A DNA stretch of 38,436 nucleotides from positions 1 through 38,436 of IMG/VR virus record IMGVR_UViG_2939147180_000005; one strand, 5' to 3'. A model generated the notes under the pieces. That model had not been told where the DNA came from and did not search any database. It worked only from the letters and a program-made list of their open reading frames with translations. The position numbers and the translations under genes are program-made. The DNA comes from a virus (taxonomy: Duplodnaviria; Heunggongvirae; Uroviricota; Caudoviricetes). Below, piece by piece: positions 9,326 through 24,556 of the stretch (position 1 is the stretch's first letter; each line of letters begins with the position of its first letter).

Positions 9326-10636
9326 TTAAATCCGAAGTGATGTGACTCTTCCGGTCGGTTTGACAATAGGGAATTGCTTAACGATGAAATAACCTCCGGC
9401 ATCATTCGGGTGATCATTGCCAGATTTTTTATCAGGCTCCCCCTTCTCATCCCAGACCTGTTGCTCCAGAGATTCGGCATATAACGGGCAACGCTTCACA
9501 TTAACTTTATAGCGACGCTCACCATTGGCATTGCAGAACATTGCATTCATTGAGTTAACGCGATCTTTTACTGGCGGGTTCGAGCTGTTCACCACAACGT
9601 TAAAACCAGCCTGCTTAAGCTGGGCTATATCCGTCGTACTTGCGTTACTTGATTTTCTGGAATCCCCGGAAGCATCTGGATAAATATAAATTTCCCTCAC
9701 TTTCCGGTAATCATTCCCATCATACAGCCAGAAGCGTTCTTTAATGATGCGGATCATATCCGGCGTATCGTAGGCATTGATGATTTCAGTTACCGCACAT
9801 GGAAGCCCCAAACGCAGCACATGGACGATTCCCGCCATCTTTCCAACGTTAAAATCCATCCCAATATAAATCGACTCCCCTGGCTGCTCCACTTCTTCGC
9901 AATTATTCAGTTTCCGGTCAAACTGATGGTAAACAGTACCACTTGTCAGGTTAGTAAACTGTCCTCGCAGATAGGCTTTAATCAGCTCTGGAGGGTATGA
10001 TTCAAGAAGCGAAGGAATGTAATCTGCTGGCAGGTTCTTTTCATTATCGAAAGTAGATGCCTGCACCAGACCATACAGTGAGGCCAGCTCTGTTTTTTCA
10101 CGCACGGCTTTAACAAACTGCTCGTAGACAAATTTGAATCCTTCCGGCGTGGTTGTAACGTCAATACCGTTGCGAAGTCCATCAATCTTATAACGCATAC
10201 GCGCAATTATCTTGCGCCACGCCGTTCTGGCTTTTTCCTTCGGCAAAATGTCCAGTTCATCCACCAACGCATTACCAATTTTGAAACCGACGATCGTTTG
10301 TGGCTTCTCCATCGATCTGCAGATAGTGGTTCCCCGATACTGGCGTCCGTAATAAAAGTGAACCTCTTTATTTCCCTCATTAATTTTTACGTTCAATCCC
10401 CAGTCAGCAGCAACTTCTTCCACTGTAGGGTAAAAAATATCGCGAATTTGGGGATACGTTGGCGCAAAATATCCCTGATTTATACCTGGATGCTCCCAAA
10501 TCCCCTTGCATATGCCGCCACACCCAACCCATGTTTTGCCCGAGCCAAAACCAGCAATATAGGCTTTAAATTTATGGGGCATTGAAAGAAATCGCGCCTG
10601 AGGCACATTAAGCGTCGGAGAGATCATCTTCATCAC
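9326..10636 (-). CDS. Terminase large subunit
   Basis: 436-aa ORF with N-terminal Walker A (…YIAGFGSGKTWVG…) and a C-terminal acidic nuclease-like region. Confidence 0.8.
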   Translation of the reverse strand: MMKMISPTLNVPQARFLSMPHKFKAYIAGFGSGKTWVGCGGICKGIWEHPGINQGYFAPTYPQIRDIFYPTVEEVAADWGLNVKINEGNKEVHFYYGRQYRGTTICRSMEKPQTIVGFKIGNALVDELDILPKEKARTAWRKIIARMRYKIDGLRNGIDVTTTPEGFKFVYEQFVKAVREKTELASLYGLVQASTFDNEKNLPADYIPSLLESYPPELIKAYLRGQFTNLTSGTVYHQFDRKLNNCEEVEQPGESIYIGMDFNVGKMAGIVHVLRLGLPCAVTEIINAYDTPDMIRIIKERFWLYDGNDYRKVREIYIYPDASGDSRKSSNASTTDIAQLKQAGFNVVVNSSNPPVKDRVNSMNAMFCNANGERRYKVNVKRCPLYAESLEQQVWDEKGEPDKKSGNDHPNDAGGYFIVKQFPIVKPTGRVTSLRI

Positions 10637-11702
10637 TCCTTACTCTGGCATCAACCACATTAATATTGATCGCCACAGGCTGGGGATGTTCATTATCTTC
10701 CACCGTTTCGATCTCTTTGCGCAGCTTCTGGTTTTCCATTCTGCGCCGTTCAATTTCCAGTTCCTGTAGCCGCTTATCTGCACATAAAGCCCCACCAGCA
10801 GCAAGCAAACGCAACAATTCACGCCGGGCGGCAGCCTTATCCTCCAGCAGGATCTCAACACCAAATTTTCCGAGCTTTGCCCCTGCATATAATTGCCGCG
10901 CTTCCCCATCAAGCAGAGTGGTATCAGCCATATAAAGCTGCCCCGTTCCCTCACCGCAGCACTTCGGGCAGTCCGGATTGGGTATGGCGTTATCAACAAA
11001 GCCAAGGCCACCATATTCCGGCTCGGGTTTGCCATCTCTGGAGGCCTGCGCCGCTGCCTTATCGAATTCTGCTATATCGCGCCACTGGTAGTGATGATTC
11101 TCGCCCCAGCAATAACGGCAGTTAACACGGCGAAATTGTGCCAACTGATTGGGGTCGGCCTGGACAATGGCCATCAACTGACTCACCAGTAAATCCAGGT
11201 CTGCGGTATAGCGTTTCTGGTACTGATTGCGGAAGTAGCTGATAGCACGAAAAACCTTAGGATTTCTTAGGAGCTGGCTGGCGGTTACGTAGGCCGCATT
11301 CCCCTCTGACTCGTATCCTGCCAGGCGATATGCCTCAACGAGTTTTTTCCCCTGGGCAACCAGCATTGCGAATTTCGCCTGCTGGTCAGAAACGCCGAAT
11401 TCATCGGGACAGAACGAAATTTCTTCCGCATCGCCCTCATTCAGGTACGCATCGGATACTGGCTTTTTTTCCTGAGATTTTCCGTTCCGCTTTTGTGCAG
11501 TCTGCGCAGATTTTTTCTGCGCACTTTTTTGCGCAGTTTTGCGCATTTCTGTCTGCGCATTTTTCGGAGGTTTTTTGATGTAACGACGGGCTGTTGCGTA
11601 ATTCAGTCCCCTTGCTTCACACCATGCCACCGGAGATATACCGGAGCGGGTGTATTCAGCAATATACTCCTGCTGCAACGCCCCCCAGTCCGGTCTGCTC
11701 AT
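10608..11702 (-). CDS. Putative terminase small subunit / DNA-packaging protein
   Basis: 364-aa ORF directly upstream of TerL: N-terminal HTH-like segment, basic AQK-repeat linker, C-terminal Cys cluster (CRYC…CPKCC). Confidence 0.5.
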   Translation of the reverse strand: MSRPDWGALQQEYIAEYTRSGISPVAWCEARGLNYATARRYIKKPPKNAQTEMRKTAQKSAQKKSAQTAQKRNGKSQEKKPVSDAYLNEGDAEEISFCPDEFGVSDQQAKFAMLVAQGKKLVEAYRLAGYESEGNAAYVTASQLLRNPKVFRAISYFRNQYQKRYTADLDLLVSQLMAIVQADPNQLAQFRRVNCRYCWGENHHYQWRDIAEFDKAAAQASRDGKPEPEYGGLGFVDNAIPNPDCPKCCGEGTGQLYMADTTLLDGEARQLYAGAKLGKFGVEILLEDKAAARRELLRLLAAGGALCADKRLQELEIERRRMENQKLRKEIETVEDNEHPQPVAININVVDARVRSDEDDLSDA

Positions 11703-11705
11703 CAG

Positions 11706-11957
11706 TTAGTCCTGATTTTTATCCACCCTGAGTAGTTCGCGCAGGGCAAAGGCATCCCCTTTTCTGGCAAGCTTAAACAATGCCGCCCGTAGCTCGGCTT
11801 CACCTTTCGCTCTGCCCTTACGGATGGACGCGTAAAAATTTGTCATTGCTTCCCGATTTTCTTTCAGTCGGTTCAGATCAACATCCAGAACGTCAGCGAT
11901 TTGTTGTGCAGTCATCCGGCACGCTGCCAGAGACTCGACTTTCGAATACGGAATCAT
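11706..11957 (-). CDS. Hypothetical small protein (possible DNA-binding); start may be the internal Met at 11915
   Basis: 83-aa ORF between the GT-like gene and TerS. Confidence 0.35.
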   Translation of the reverse strand: MIPYSKVESLAACRMTAQQIADVLDVDLNRLKENREAMTNFYASIRKGRAKGEAELRAALFKLARKGDAFALRELLRVDKNQD

Positions 11958-12825
11958 TTGTCACCCCCATTAATATGCAGGGTGTCTTCTTCCTGTATTT
12001 TTCGTGAAGGATTTTTACTGCAGCGTTGTTCCAGGTGACCTGATGGTGAATGCGTTTATGGCTGGCGCCCATCAGTGAGATTTTTACGCACGACGGCGCA
12101 TACATGACGGAATAAAAACTTTTAACGTAGGTCCCGGAATCCAGATACAGCTCGGTCATTCCGCCGCTGTTTTTCTGCGTCTGTTTCTGCCCTAACTGGA
12201 CAGCACCGATCGTCATAAACAATTCACCACGGCGACCGAGATTCGTGTACGTATTCACATCCTCGTTAATGCGCCCCATGAATGAGAACGGTCGATCAAC
12301 CGAACAGATAAAGCTGTTCATTGCCTTGCGTTTCACCCACGAAGCATGGCCGCCATTGTCACCAAGAAAATCCCCGCCCTGCGACATAGCGATGGAAAGC
12401 GCGGGTATTGATTCGTAATACGCCAGCATTTCAGAAAGGATCGCATCCAGTTTCCTTATCGGGAAATAGGCCTGGTCATAGTTGCGATCCACCCGAAACT
12501 GGAACTCGTGATAATCATCATCGAGCTGAATGAAGTATTTACACCCGACCAGTTTTGCCAGGTCGAAACAGGCATTACGGGCGTAAAAAATTGAGCGGTG
12601 GTCACCAAAATTATCGGCTTCGTCAAAACGACTGGCAATATCGGCTTTGGAAAATACCAGCACCTGTTCACCAAATTCAGCCATGTACTGATGCCGTGTC
12701 TTATCTTCATCATCAACAACGATAAAAATTTTCCCGGTATAGCCAGCACGACGCAACGTCCGGTAAGTCAGAACTTTGTCCGGTCGCCCGTGAGTCAGAA
12801 TAAAGGCGCAAAAATCATCACACAT
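11893..12825 (-). CDS. DxD-motif protein, possible GT-A-like nucleotide-sugar transferase
   Basis: …KIFIVVDDEDKT… and …KYFIQLDDDYHEF… resemble GT-A nucleotide-binding and DxD motifs; start overlaps the ParB-like gene stop by 8 nt. Confidence 0.4.
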   Translation of the reverse strand: MCDDFCAFILTHGRPDKVLTYRTLRRAGYTGKIFIVVDDEDKTRHQYMAEFGEQVLVFSKADIASRFDEADNFGDHRSIFYARNACFDLAKLVGCKYFIQLDDDYHEFQFRVDRNYDQAYFPIRKLDAILSEMLAYYESIPALSIAMSQGGDFLGDNGGHASWVKRKAMNSFICSVDRPFSFMGRINEDVNTYTNLGRRGELFMTIGAVQLGQKQTQKNSGGMTELYLDSGTYVKSFYSVMYAPSCVKISLMGASHKRIHHQVTWNNAAVKILHEKYRKKTPCILMGVTNDSVFESRVSGSVPDDCTTNR

Positions 12826-13606
12826 ATTCCTCCTCCCCGCTATGCATGATCGCCACCATGCGCTGCGTCATTCGGACAAATCCATTTTCAATAGCCTGCT
12901 GATAATCAATGATCACCAGCGCCGACTCCTCGAAAAGGCACTGAATTTCAGCGGGGGCATGAGCGTAATAGTCCGCAATTCTGCTGAAATTAAACACCGT
13001 GTGACGTTCTGCCGCACACAGGAGGAATTTCTCAATATCAGGATCAAGGGACGCCGAACGTATCCGGCTGATCAGCTCCTGAGTTTTCGTATCGTCATAC
13101 AGTTCACTGATATCCGGTTTACCGCCCGACGGCTCATAAACAGGCGTATCAATTTTCGTCGTATACGGCTCCTCCTTATTTCCTGTACCGGGCAAAACAT
13201 CCGTCAACAGTTCATCAATTTCTGTCGGGCCGAAGCCTGTCAGGGAGACATCAAAATCAGCATTGATTAGGTCCGACAGCTCCATCCGCAACAGATCTTC
13301 ATCCCAGCCAGCATTCATCGGTAGGCGATTATCTGCCAGGCGGTACGCCTTTTTCTGCTCATCCGTCAGGCCAGACAGAACAATGACCGGAACAGAATCC
13401 ATTTTGAGCATTTCAGCCGCCATAACACGACCGTGACCCGCAATAATTTCGCCCTTTTCGTCAATCAGCACCGGATTAGTCCAGCCGAATTGCTTAATAC
13501 TTTCTACCAGTTGTGCCACCTGCTCAGTACTGTGCGTCCTGGCGTTGTGCGCATACGGTGACAATTCTTGTAATGGGCGATAGACTATCTTTAATTTCTC
13601 GCTCAT
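12818..13606 (-). CDS. ParB-like nuclease domain protein
   Basis: N-terminal ParB/sulfiredoxin signature …FGWTNPVLIDEKGEIIAGHGRVMAA…; 262 aa with acidic C-terminal half. Confidence 0.7.
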   Translation of the reverse strand: MSEKLKIVYRPLQELSPYAHNARTHSTEQVAQLVESIKQFGWTNPVLIDEKGEIIAGHGRVMAAEMLKMDSVPVIVLSGLTDEQKKAYRLADNRLPMNAGWDEDLLRMELSDLINADFDVSLTGFGPTEIDELLTDVLPGTGNKEEPYTTKIDTPVYEPSGGKPDISELYDDTKTQELISRIRSASLDPDIEKFLLCAAERHTVFNFSRIADYYAHAPAEIQCLFEESALVIIDYQQAIENGFVRMTQRMVAIMHSGEEEYV

Positions 13607-20444: not shown

Positions 20445-23006
20445 TTAATATTTGAATCTTTTGTTTGGTATGATTTTCAGTTTTTTTGCTAAAGCCGTTA
20501 ACTTTCTTAAGCGCCACTTAAGGGTGGACTCAGTTAATCCTTCCCCTGCAATACCTTTAAAAATTTCATAACAAGGCTGACCAGCGTGTATTGCTTTCCA
20601 GAAATCCTCATAGCCGTCATCAAGTATTTGAGCTGTAAGTGCCTCATTAAGCTCTTCAATATTAGATACTGCTAAGTGCCCATCGACTAAAACACCAGCA
20701 TTATTTAAATCAGATTTTGCTTTAAGCGCTTCTTTTCCAGTAGGCTCTTTACCGTTCAGTATCAAGCTGGTAACTTCAATCATTTTAGCGTGAGATGTTA
20801 CAGGGAAGAAAAGCCCTTTATTTCCTGCCCTTAAGCCCGAAATTTTCTTAAGATTTCCTAACTCAGCTGTTGCATCATTATGCGACACATCTGAGGCAAT
20901 AATGCGACCTTCCCCATCAATTTCTATAATTTTTAGGGCAAGTAACCATGACTTTAAAATCGTAGAGTATAATCCCCATGTTTTCTCTGATGCCTCAATA
21001 AAAGGATAAGACTCAGAAAAATACGTGGGTATATCGCTCTCGAAAACTTTTTCTCCAGAAAGAATTTTTTTAAGTAAAGTCTCGACGAGTTGATTGTCTA
21101 AAATTTTTCGGCGTAGATAACCAGCAAGGGTTCCTTGAGAATATATATCCCTAACATTGGTTGGAATTATCCATTCACCACTTTTAACTGCATCAAGCAA
21201 GTCTAAATTCCGCAATTCCTTAACGAGATTAAATGCGTAACCTTCCCTTACATTTAGGTTTTCCGTTATTTTTGTAATTGTCAGCTTTCTCATTGTTATC
21301 AGTTTATGAAACTGGGATATAACAGAGCTTGGATACATTCTATAAATAACCAGCAGTCTAAATTCAGGAAGCTTTTGGTAGACAAGATATTCTTTGAAAA
21401 CATCGTTATAAGTATCATAGGTAGAACCACTCAAGCGTACCAATCTGTAAGCTGTTAACTTATCGAGGACTTTTACAAGCATTGGGTCTTCGTCAAATTG
21501 GTATTGAAGCTCATTGAAATCTGCTGGTAGCTTAGCTGCAATCTTAACTAGATAATCTTTTTCAATCTCATCCAAACCTTCAAGCTCTTCTTCAAAAAGG
21601 TCGTTCAGTTTTAAGCCCGCACTGATTAAATCCCTCTGAGAGTCACCTTTTCGAGTGAGTTTTAAAACATGAGCTATCGTTCTCTTTAAAAGCCAAGGAA
21701 AACCCTGCGCAAATTCAATAATATAGGGTAGTATTTCTTTACTGAGAATATTAGAGTTATTTTCATTTATTTTTTCTAAAAGAAGTATTGATTCTTTGTT
21801 TTCAAAATCCGGAAGAGTAAAGCTTTTCGATAGCTGATTAATTCTATTAAGAGAAACTTTACTGTTGTCATAGGTTGTTAGCTGATCATTTTTACGCGCA
21901 AACACTATGTATACACCACCACGAAGCTTTGTTATTGAGTTCGCAATGTATTCATAGCAATCGAAAATGTCAGGATTCGAGAATGTAGATTCAAATTGGT
22001 CAACAAAGAAAACTGCCTTTTGGCCATTTAGTGAAAGTTGCAAGTCTTTCAGTTGTTCATCAAGTTCTATAAAATTAGTCGCAATAATGCTGCTTTGGGT
22101 AAACCTCTGAACAAGATAAAAAACATCATATATTGTTTTTACATCCCTTGAGTCATGTAATTCAGTAATAACCCCATCCATTGAGAGCTTGTTTTCTAAA
22201 AAGGATACAAGAGAGCTTTTTCCTACTCCAGAGCGACTTTTTATCTGAAGAACATGTGGTAGCTCATTATGTTTGATGTGAGAAAGAAGTTCACCTATGA
22301 ATTCAGTCCTGCCAACGAACACAGTTGGCCCTGCAGGTAGCCTATAGTCAGCCCATTCAGTCCCAACAGTTAATCCTCGAACTATTTCACGCTTTACTTG
22401 AGGCATTTCGTCAACTATTTTTTTCTTGCTAGGCATAATGAAATCCAAACCAGCAAGTTCTGAAATCCCTATTTTTAAATTTTCCAAAAATCTTTCATCA
22501 TCAATTTGGCTGCCACTTTTATTGAATACCACAAAATTTGATGGCGTTCCTGAATTTACCTCTTTTAAAATAAATAACTTATACAACCCCGTATCAGTCT
22601 TGAGAATGTTTGGGGCCACAAGGTCATAACCTTTAATTTCCTTATGTAGAGATGTTTCAGTCGGCAAATGCAAAGTCGCAGTTATTTGGTTATAAAGTTC
22701 CTTTCCTACCTTTGTCGTTAACCCCATATTTTCGACAGTTCGAAAATAATCTTCCGCCTCCGGTGTTAATGGTGATAATGACAGAAATAATCCATGCACC
22801 TTTTTTTCCAGAAGACCTAGCGGCAAAAGCTTTCCAACGAACGCAGCAACTGTTTGTCCACTCATGCTTTTGCTGTGTGCTTTAGCTTCGCCAATAATCT
22901 TTTGGCCAGTTGCTCTAGAGAATCCTTCAATGTCGTACTCTAAACTAGATTCTTTTTTCCTTAACTCAATGTCGTATCCAGAGCCTTCCAAGTATTCTTT
23001 TAACAA
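20445..23006 (-). CDS. Mrr-like PD-(D/E)xK nuclease fused to a STAND-type P-loop NTPase with a C-terminal helical domain; candidate antiphage defence protein
   Basis: 853-aa ORF, AT-rich. N-terminus …YDIEG…IIGEAKAHSK (D…ExK); P-loop HVLQIKSRSGVGKSSL; Walker B AVFFVDQFE; GxP-like AQGFPWLL; ~400-aa C-terminal region without recognised motifs. Start is TTG at 23006; no upstream ATG. Confidence 0.6.
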   Translation of the reverse strand: MLKEYLEGSGYDIELRKKESSLEYDIEGFSRATGQKIIGEAKAHSKSMSGQTVAAFVGKLLPLGLLEKKVHGLFLSLSPLTPEAEDYFRTVENMGLTTKVGKELYNQITATLHLPTETSLHKEIKGYDLVAPNILKTDTGLYKLFILKEVNSGTPSNFVVFNKSGSQIDDERFLENLKIGISELAGLDFIMPSKKKIVDEMPQVKREIVRGLTVGTEWADYRLPAGPTVFVGRTEFIGELLSHIKHNELPHVLQIKSRSGVGKSSLVSFLENKLSMDGVITELHDSRDVKTIYDVFYLVQRFTQSSIIATNFIELDEQLKDLQLSLNGQKAVFFVDQFESTFSNPDIFDCYEYIANSITKLRGGVYIVFARKNDQLTTYDNSKVSLNRINQLSKSFTLPDFENKESILLLEKINENNSNILSKEILPYIIEFAQGFPWLLKRTIAHVLKLTRKGDSQRDLISAGLKLNDLFEEELEGLDEIEKDYLVKIAAKLPADFNELQYQFDEDPMLVKVLDKLTAYRLVRLSGSTYDTYNDVFKEYLVYQKLPEFRLLVIYRMYPSSVISQFHKLITMRKLTITKITENLNVREGYAFNLVKELRNLDLLDAVKSGEWIIPTNVRDIYSQGTLAGYLRRKILDNQLVETLLKKILSGEKVFESDIPTYFSESYPFIEASEKTWGLYSTILKSWLLALKIIEIDGEGRIIASDVSHNDATAELGNLKKISGLRAGNKGLFFPVTSHAKMIEVTSLILNGKEPTGKEALKAKSDLNNAGVLVDGHLAVSNIEELNEALTAQILDDGYEDFWKAIHAGQPCYEIFKGIAGEGLTESTLKWRLRKLTALAKKLKIIPNKRFKY

Positions 23007-23350: not shown

Positions 23351-24556
23351 CTGTGAGTTCAATCAGTGGATGCAACGCTATCCTTAATCAAGGGGGACGT
23401 TGCCATGAAACGAAGAACTCGGATTAACTACACGCCAGAGCAGAAGGCAATTATCTGGGACAGATATAAGCAAGGTGATTCTCTCCATGATATCGCCAGA
23501 ATGTTCGACAGATATCATTCTTCCATTATGCCCACTATCCACCAGACAGGGAGCTACCGTCCTCCCGTGCGAAAACGGTACCGATTAGCGCTTTCGCTTG
23601 ATAAAAGAGAGGAGATATCCAGAGGAGTGGTAGCAAAACTCAGTATCAGGGACATCGCCGCCAAATTATCAAAAGCGCCTTCAACGATTAGCCGCGAGGT
23701 CAGGAGGCACGGAGGTGCCAAACAATACCGTGCAGCAAAAGCCGATACTGCTGCATGGGAAAATGCTCTGAGACCAAAACCTTGCAAGCTAATTGAAAGC
23801 CCACATTGTGTAAAATCATTGCAGAGAAGATGCATCAGGACTAGTCGCCGGAACAGATCGCCGGCTGGCTGAAACGCTGTTATCCGGATAATCAGGAAAT
23901 GCATGTGTCACACGAAACGATTTATAAAACGCTTTTTATACAAACCCGGGGTGCATTAAAAAAAGAACTGCAGCAATGCCTCAGAAGCGGAAGAGCGGTT
24001 CGTAGATCCAGAACATCATCGCTTAAAGGGAAAGGGTTAGGGTCAATCCCAGATACGATACCAATAAGCGAAAGGCCACCTGAAGTTGCAGACAGAGCCA
24101 TACCGTGTCACTGGGAAGGTGACCTGATCCAGTGCTCGAAAAACTCCTTTATCGTCACCCTCGTAGAACGCCATTCCCGCTTTGTTATGCTGGCAAAAAT
24201 CAGAGACAACAAGACCATAACGGTTATATCTGCACTCATCAGACAAGCCCGGGAATTACCTGTTGAGCTTTATAAAACACTAACATGGGACCGGGGCGCT
24301 GAAATGACCAGCCATACCCGGTTTACTGTAGCGACAGATATTCAGATTTATTTCTGTGATCATCAATCTCCATGGCAACGCGGCTCAAATGAAAATACAA
24401 ACAGATTACTCAGACAGTATTTTCCAAAAGGAACTGACTTATCAGTTCACACAGTGTTGCCAGACAGCTCAACGAGCGGCCAAGAAAAACGCTAGACTAC
24501 GAATCACCCGCAGAACGGTTCAATAAGTGTCTTGCGTCCATCAGTTTAACTCACAG
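23351..24556 (+). mobile_element. IS30-family insertion sequence with decayed transposase
   Basis: Imperfect terminal inverted repeats CTGTGAGTTCAATCAGTGGATGCAACGC (23351-) and CTGTGAGTTAAACTGA on the opposite strand (-24556); internal ORFs are homologous to IS30 transposase. Confidence 0.7.
23366..24495 (+). pseudogene. IS30-family transposase, disrupted by a frameshift near 23806-23810, an in-frame TAG at 23842-23844 and a C-terminal frameshift
   Basis: N-terminal HTH part (23366-23872) and DDE catalytic part (23899-24495, …HWEGDL…TWDRG…QSPWQRGSNENTN…) are in different frames; the bridging frame reads …KIIAEKMHQD*SPEQIAGWL… where IS30 has Trp. Confidence 0.75.

Follow-up and report, generated by a model that had tools for sequence, protein, structure and literature searches.

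Recognition of packaging-initiation (pac) sites by small terminases (TerS) is an open question (PMC9611059). The pac site of phage P1 is a 161-bp sequence inside the pacA gene that carries seven Dam-site-containing hexamers (HEX4/HEX3) bound by the pacase; methylation of the hexamers regulates the site, and their synonymous mutation lowers the phage titre about 9-fold (PMC10028697). The headful-packaging phage P22 uses a single asymmetric 22-bp sequence within its small-terminase gene (PMC9611059). In SPP1 and SF6, pac (pacL/pacR) overlaps the 5′ end of the TerS gene, with multiple contacts around the cut site (PMC9611059, PMC4737164), and TerS binding is reported to be weak, largely sequence-independent and without a short exact repeat. 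Here we examine a 38,436-nt stretch of Caudoviricetes DNA (IMG/VR record IMGVR_UViG_2939147180_000005, positions 1 to 38,436; below, the window), which is an intact Rac-like lambdoid prophage of Escherichia coli. Its TerS gene contains an array of the palindromic hexamer TGCGCA. Conservation of the array at the DNA level in three reading frames, its covariation with an N-terminal helix-turn-helix (HTH) domain of TerS, and the homology of that domain to P1 PacA, which has a proven hexamer pac, lead us to conclude from sequence comparison that the array is probably the sequence-specific recognition element of the prophage's pac site.

The TerS gene (10608..11702, minus strand) encodes 364 amino acids and matches PHROG 51 over its full length (E 1e-74) and Pfam PF03592 Terminase_2 at residues 123–321 (E 1.7e-9; 38.9 bits against a gathering cut-off of 26.1). 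A motif scan confirms the hexamers that had been described within it, five exact TGCGCA at 11503, 11518, 11530, 11540 and 11554 and a degenerate TGTGCA at 11494 that is an exact TGCGCA in many close relatives. Together they define the proposed TerS recognition element, delimited by motif positions and conservation, as 66 bp (11494..11559, minus strand) in the 5′ third of the gene (gene nt 143–208). Start-to-start spacings are 9, 15, 12, 10 and 14 bp, where the original prediction gave 10–15 bp. That prediction also placed a tract of four to six T residues before each hexamer. This holds for 11518, 11530 and 11540, but 11503 is preceded by GTC and 11554 by TTTCTGTC; the 'phased T-tracts' are mostly the lysine codons of the encoded linker, and about half of the hexamers have one.

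TGCGCA is not enriched across the window, which has 21 copies against 13.7 ± 4.2 expected, and 5 of the 21 lie in the array. With a Poisson rate taken from the 16 copies outside it, the probability of at least five TGCGCA in 57 nt is ~6e-11, or ~2e-6 for the whole window. The window scan finds no second hexamer cluster, and downstream of the array there are only scattered hexamers with one mismatch.

In the reverse sense the forward-strand array includes cttttgTGCACA, and the coding strand reads AAT GCG CAG ACA GAA ATG CGC AAA ACT GCG CAA AAA AGT GCG CAG AAA AAA TCT GCG CAG ACT GCA CAA. Four of the hexamers are translated as xxT-GCG-CAx, giving Ala-Gln in the basic linker sequence KNAQTEMRKTAQKSAQKKSAQTAQK. 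The hexamer at 11540 lies in another frame, xTG-CGC-Axx, and its ATG CGC AAA encodes Met-Arg-Lys. The earlier description of the array as coding for a basic, low-complexity linker of AQK repeats is therefore correct as to the nature of the linker but not as to this hexamer.

From its N to its C terminus, TerS consists of a PacA-like HTH, a linker and a canonical Terminase_2 core. The N-terminal part (residues 1–44, MSRPDWGALQQEYIAEYTRSGISPVAWCEARGLNYATARRYIKK; 11571..11702, minus strand) is the proposed reader of the hexamers. AlphaFold2 predicts three helices at residues 6–20, 24–31 and 35–38 with a pLDDT of 86–88, and the top Foldseek matches to this model in the PDB are all HTH DNA-binding domains, with E values of at least 1, none of them significant for so small a domain. 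A profile of 20 HTH sequences aligns with residues 2–40 of P1 PacA (AEFNLNPNTARRYLRAF) with a probability of 93.3% and an E value of 2.7e-7 (hhalign against PacA 1–64), and pairwise BLASTP comparisons with PacA give E values of 0.007 and 0.001. The domain thus appears to be a remote homologue of the PacA HTH. The TerS N terminus also matches the IS66 TnpA HTH model below threshold, which hints at a transposase-type origin of the module.

The linker (approximately residues 45–100; 11403..11570, minus strand) is basic and predicted to be disordered: mean pLDDT is 66, 52 and 48 for residues 41–50, 51–60 and 61–70, and below 50 for residues 59–67. The array lies within the first 90 nt of linker-coding DNA. 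Beyond the linker, TerS residues 109–180 show a weak alignment to residues 10–77 of the Pam5 small terminase, in its N-terminal DNA-binding part (PDB 21di_E, E 0.011), and this marginal match to the Pam5 TerS core is the only one returned by a PDB sequence search with TerS. The PacA-like HTH and linker (residues 1–100) therefore look like an add-on to a TerS that is complete without them, and the labour may be divided: the add-on would dock sequence-specifically and the core would wrap DNA non-specifically.

The P1 site and the window array share several features. In P1 pacA the TGATCA/G hexamers start at nt 193, 200, 212 and 227 and at nt 323, 335 and 346, in two frames, forming clusters (193–232 and 323–351) that flank the annotated IHF site (pacA nt 255–267) and the cleavage positions (nt 275–284). 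Both phages therefore have several palindromic hexamers inside the small-terminase gene, just after the N-terminal HTH part and in more than one frame, and the spacing in the P1-type array is 7–15 bp. In design, in position and in the homologous reader beside it, the array thus matches P1 pac. The two differ in the distance from the HTH-coding part to the array, 11 nt in the window and 67 nt in P1, and in that the window has one cluster of 5–6 hexamers whereas P1 has 4 + 3 flanking the cut. TGCGCA contains no GATC, unlike the Dam-site hexamers of P1, which makes Dam control impossible. A consensus scan from 400 nt upstream of TerS to gene nt ~595 finds no match to the IHF consensus WATCAANNNNTTR. 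The window large terminase (TerL) is of the Terminase_6N/6C type and not PacB-like (no BLASTP similarity to P1 PacB; best E 0.82), and the Terminase_2 core of TerS is unlike PacA. P1-like methylation control was considered and rejected, as the motif has no GATC and the window has no methyltransferase or TET.

The resemblance to P22, from which a pac site at this position had been predicted, is more limited. As in P22, the candidate lies inside the small-terminase gene, and the window phage also has a P22-like coat protein. Unlike in P22, the element is an array of a 6-bp palindrome and TerS matches Terminase_2. The P22 TerS (gp3) belongs to a different fold family and, to our knowledge, has no such N-terminal HTH extension. 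The TerS core resembles the G1P-type TerS of SPP1 and SF6 in being Terminase_2-type with its own HTH, and the window differs from these phages in the additional N-terminal HTH and in the exact hexamer array. The proposal of a pac recognition site is partly supported, by DNA-level conservation, HTH covariation and the PacA-like HTH, with its function deduced from these. The P22 analogy was imprecise, and the closest relative of the array is P1 pac.

We collected homologous loci in two ways. One set was retrieved with HTH peptide patterns, blind to the linker, at one genome per species (42 loci), and the other from viral contigs with core peptide patterns (80 loci). Density, frame and codon statistics were computed for 73 unique TerS N termini of the ARRYIKK type. 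In these, TGCGCA occurs at 48.4 per kb in the 100 nt after the HTH, whereas the DNA around these loci (497 kb) has 0.51 per kb; all members have at least two copies, and the mode is five. The hexamers are read as xxT-GCG-CAx (280), xTG-CGC-Axx (56) and TGC-GCA (17). Ala-Gln pairs in the linker are written T|GCG|CAR in 276 of 298 cases (93%), compared with 69 of 626 (11%) in background open reading frames (ORFs) at the same loci.

The comparison with related prophages that had been suggested beforehand finds the array at the same place in TerS homologues of 34–45% identity from Klebsiella, Enterobacter, Citrobacter, Raoultella, Pantoea and others. The TerS gene of Klebsiella phage 5 LV-2017 (45% identical), for example, has six TGCGCA at this place, in the frames T-A-Q, L-R and C-A. 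Among relatives the spacers between hexamers vary in sequence and length, and the hexamers persist. Column diversity is 0.08 for hexamers, 0.13 for spacers and 0.12 for downstream codon positions 1–2 in the E. coli group, and 0.18, 0.35 and 0.36, respectively, in the divergent group. At two loci (L125 and L126; protein P0043) an A-run has gained one A, which throws some 25 codons (KCAERNAQNCAKKCAKKKLRRLRKG) out of frame until the original frame resumes. Despite the frameshifted linker, four of the five hexamers stay intact and keep their DNA positions.

The window array has no stop codon over 120 nt in any of the three sense frames, all of which encode basic peptides. This explains the tolerance of linker frameshifts and also the many truncated HTH-only ORFs on record, of which some 200 database proteins of 44–81 amino acids are examples from this TerS family. 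The A-runs between hexamers are frameshift hot spots (window 11480–11580; loci L125, L126, L104 and L119; proteins P0121–P0240). Taken together, frames, codon use and frameshift survival indicate that the 'AQK linker' is best read as the translation of a DNA signal. The array is under selection at the DNA level, and the AQK repeats are more plausibly a consequence of the DNA motif than the reason for it.

The repeat also changes with the HTH. A sister group of TerS proteins has a near-identical domain with A-K-R-Y-I-K[IV] in place of A-R-R-Y-I-K-K. These genes lack TGCGCA and have instead 3–5 copies of TGCGAAT / TGCGAATTCGCA, coding for 'ANSQK'; at one such locus (L040) the repeats are read in another frame and give other peptides. 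Pasteurella Pmp11 (third helix AKRYIKK) has nine copies of TGCGAA, mostly read Cys-Glu, the Stx-type phages PhiR12_3 and GER2 (both ARRYIKL) have seven and five copies of TGCGCA, respectively, and Stx2a_EH0505 (ARTRIKM) has four of (C/T)GATCAT. Over all loci, 128 of the 131 ARR[YH] helices are paired with TGCGCA, all 7 AKRY helices with TGCGAA(T) and the single ARTR helix with GATCAT; of these loci only the HTH-retrieved set (42 loci) is unbiased, since those from L135 onward were fetched by their TGCGCA arrays. In a converse search for viral contigs with three TGCGCA close together, the HTH lies within 400 nt in 58 of the first 80, and most of those without it are simple tandem repeats.

This pairing goes with the HTH type and not with the TerS core. 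A Yersinia TerS combines K39 and TGCGAAT with 46% identity to the window TerS over 349 residues, and the PhiR12_3 TerS, which has only residues 1–97 in common with the window protein, nevertheless carries a TGCGCA array. In Escherichia phage Rac-SA53 (L255, 1294–2322) the TerS is annotated as a deletion fusion without the HTH, and three hexamers are point-mutated (TTCGCA, TGCGCT and TGCCCA) in otherwise 90% identical DNA. This looks like decay of the hexamers without an HTH reader, although it is anecdotal, being a single case. LT-IIa enterotoxin genes lie just upstream in this phage.

The sister arrays of Klebsiella RothC, Yersinia vB_YenM_210.17 and Pasteurella Pmp11 (all TGCGAA(T)) and of the Stx2a phage (GATCAT) have in common with the window the HTH module, the position in the gene, the copy number (3–9) and the frame-independent coding. 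They differ in the repeat sequence and in the third-helix residue (AKRY, ARTR). Literature searches, whose coverage did not extend to older subscription papers, returned no experimental characterization of these arrays. In the Stx2a-converting phage Stx2_EH0505 (L133, 1620–1700) the HTH is followed by the four (C/T)GATCAT, coding IDHEIDHKTDHEIDH, with two TGCGCA further downstream; the GATCAT repeats are Dam-site-containing hexamers, as in P1 pac.

Seven loci of the Klebsiella/Enterobacter type (L001, L008, L010, L011, L014, L021 and L033) have a second group of 2–3 TGCGCA at TerS nt 347–391 (347/359/385), about 150 nt downstream of the main array. Two of these hexamers encode Ala-Gln and one Val/Met-Arg. 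The second group, which is not present in all relatives (others encode its peptide without the hexamers), recalls the HEX4/HEX3 layout of P1. A more distant TerS-like HTH protein (MAERKQVDWESVERDYSAGLLSLREIAAKYDTKESSIRYKA) on IMG/VR contig 3300014833_000094 (L207, ~656–690) has three TGCGCA after the HTH, read Leu-Arg, and does not match our HTH profile at E ≤ 1e-3.

These observations suggest how packaging might start. The extra N-terminal HTH would be tethered by the flexible basic linker to a canonical ring-forming Terminase_2 core, so that several HTH domains of one TerS oligomer could each bind one hexamer, the bound hexamers being 7–16 bp apart (~12 bp on average) within the DNA that encodes the linker itself. 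TerS assembled on the array would mark phage concatemers for the T4-type TerL, which would cut nearby and start unidirectional headful packaging. HTH binding, nearby cleavage and packaging direction are all inferred. The window TerL (9326..10636, minus strand; Pfam Terminase_6N and Terminase_6C, E 3.7e-33 and 3.4e-10) is of the T4-like headful type, which counts in support of a role in packaging, and is presumed to be the nuclease and motor that would cut near the array. A related TerL in PhiR12_3 carries the annotation 'T4-like headful'.

Several points weigh against a pac element. The literature searches found no published binding, cleavage or packaging ends for any TGCGCA member and no pac mapping in this phage group. 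A second cluster, an IHF consensus, GATC and a PacB-like TerL, all features of P1, are missing. The alignment behind the PacA homology covers only 39 columns. The ARRY helix is common to P1 PacA and the window HTH while their hexamers differ, so the R39K correlation is not the whole specificity code. The compared sequences are phylogenetically related and the ARRY loci from L135 onward were retrieved by a TGCGCA-array search, so independent events are fewer than the counts suggest. Moreover, the real binder in the E. coli group could be the HTH-like product of an 83-codon ORF directly upstream of TerS.

This ORF (11706..11957, minus strand) matches PHROG 309, 'terminase small subunit', at profile positions 145–218 (E 2.5e-22) and has no Pfam or NCBIfam match. 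It overlaps the 3′ end of the glycosyltransferase gene, and its product may be an accessory DNA-binding or packaging protein.

The array could be a binding site that does not serve packaging, either an operator for TerS or another phage or host protein (controlling late genes or the TerS:TerL ratio) or a site for the 83-residue product. DNA-level conservation and HTH covariation speak for co-evolution of binder and site and not for the purpose of binding, and the TerS–TerL operon has the array at its 5′ end and a small HTH-like ORF directly upstream. We nevertheless regard this explanation as unlikely, because the terminase itself provides the co-segregating binder in its N-terminal domain, the homologous module and array of P1 form an experimentally defined pac site, and 140–200 nt inside a coding region is an unusual place for an operator; the upstream ORF, for its part, is missing from Klebsiella-type loci that keep the array. 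A signal in the mRNA, with palindromic GC-rich hexamers pairing into hairpins that tune TerS–TerL translation or stability, is less probable still. RNA-level constraint would likewise be independent of frame, and the window array folds as RNA with −32.3 kcal/mol (z = −4.9 against shuffles) and a Superficieibacter homologue with z = −3.2. GC-rich palindromes, however, automatically give a good z-score, and the non-palindromic one-orientation arrays show no excess structure (Pasteurella Pmp11, 9 × TGCGAA, z = −0.7 and +0.9; Yersinia, z = −0.3), nor does the proven P1 pac (z = −0.7). The property shared by these arrays is thus the repeat and not structure, and mRNA structure was rejected as the common feature.

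We give very little credence to the idea that the array has no nucleic-acid function and arose by selection for a basic Ala-Gln-Lys-rich linker or by neutral replication slippage. The array does encode a low-complexity basic linker, and its A-runs are slippage-prone, with many truncated or frameshifted ORFs on record. The hexamer is nevertheless kept through frameshifts and in three frames with different peptides (AQ, [LMV]R and CA), one codon combination accounts for 93% of Ala-Gln pairs compared with 11% in background ORFs, and the array persists at 34–45% TerS identity with spacers that vary around hexamers that do not. A protein-level origin of the repeats was rejected on the evidence of frames, codon use and frameshift-tolerant variants. 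It is just as improbable that TGCGCA, a type II-like palindrome, marks a cluster of restriction-modification or DNA-hypermodification targets. A TET-associated glycosyltransferase (TAGT; PF20691) and a ParB_N protein are encoded within 2 kb, and hexamer methylation regulates pac in P1 (PMC10028697), but no methyltransferase, TET or restriction enzyme of this specificity was found in the window, Klebsiella-type phages have the array without TAGT/ParB_N neighbours, and the sister groups use the non-palindromic TGCGAA(T).

If the array is a pac recognition element, it may belong to something wider. It is a serious possibility, short of a probability, that the window shows one allele of a general modular system of pac recognition in which a PacA-like HTH has been grafted onto unrelated TerS cores and finds its cognate sites in its own linker DNA. 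Because the sites lie in the linker DNA of their own HTH, reader and site would move together as one cassette. Specificity would switch by small changes: R39 occurs with TGCGCA and K39 with TGCGAA(T), and the repeats of the Stx2a phage and of P1 are GATCAT and TGATCA, respectively. With such a system the P1 pac design would reach beyond P1 to Rac-like, Klebsiella, Yersinia, Pasteurella and Shiga-toxin phages, and there would be a natural specificity series for studying how ring-shaped small terminases read pac. In the literature searches we found no paper that connects pac with TGCGCA, with TGCGAA(T) or with this TerS group, or that describes the P1 hexamer design in other phages.

Very few pac sites are defined. 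In this TerS family the motif is exact, repeated and easy to mutate, and its natural specificity variants lie one third-helix residue and one or two repeat bases apart, so that binding and swap experiments are directly feasible. A known pac signal would help to predict where generalized or lateral transduction starts, to design packageable phagemids and to recognize satellites that copy the signal, and related modules also occur in Klebsiella prophages and Stx phages. The 'AQK' linker also illustrates clearly how an overlapping DNA signal can dictate the sequence of a protein segment.

The TerS 5′ end with its array (window 11373–11702) is present at 90% identity or more in 882 of 5,426 complete E. 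coli genomes, almost always as one chromosomal copy per genome, and E. coli FDAARGOS_497 is 100% identical over this 330-nt segment. The vB_EcoS-xxxR 'phages' feature in a study of phages located in the genomes of clinical isolates, and the literature searches found no termini data for these records. The HTH family is of modest size, with 191 clusters at 50% identity among 1.84 billion representatives. The domain is almost always at the extreme N terminus and is joined to varied cores. Six proteins (P0260, P0314, P0341, P0343, P0359 and P0369) have 4–7 tandem copies of a domain that matches the HTH.

Downstream of TerS follow TerL, a portal protein (DUF4055), a Mu-F-like protein, a DUF6651 protein that is possibly the scaffold and the P22-like coat protein. 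Upstream are the 83-codon ORF, the TAGT-family glycosyltransferase, the ParB_N protein, trkG and an Rz/lysozyme/holin cassette, and further on Q-like, RecE, RecT and integrase genes. The glycosyltransferase and ParB_N genes, between trkG and the packaging genes (11893–13606, minus strand), encode a putative DNA-modification pair, although domain searches of the window find no TET dioxygenase or DNA methyltransferase to accompany them. Elsewhere in the window, an 853-residue protein with nSTAND1 NTPase and Mrr_cat nuclease domains (20445–23006, minus strand), next to an integrase-core (rve) fragment (23899–24495, plus strand), is likely to be a prophage-borne anti-phage defence protein.

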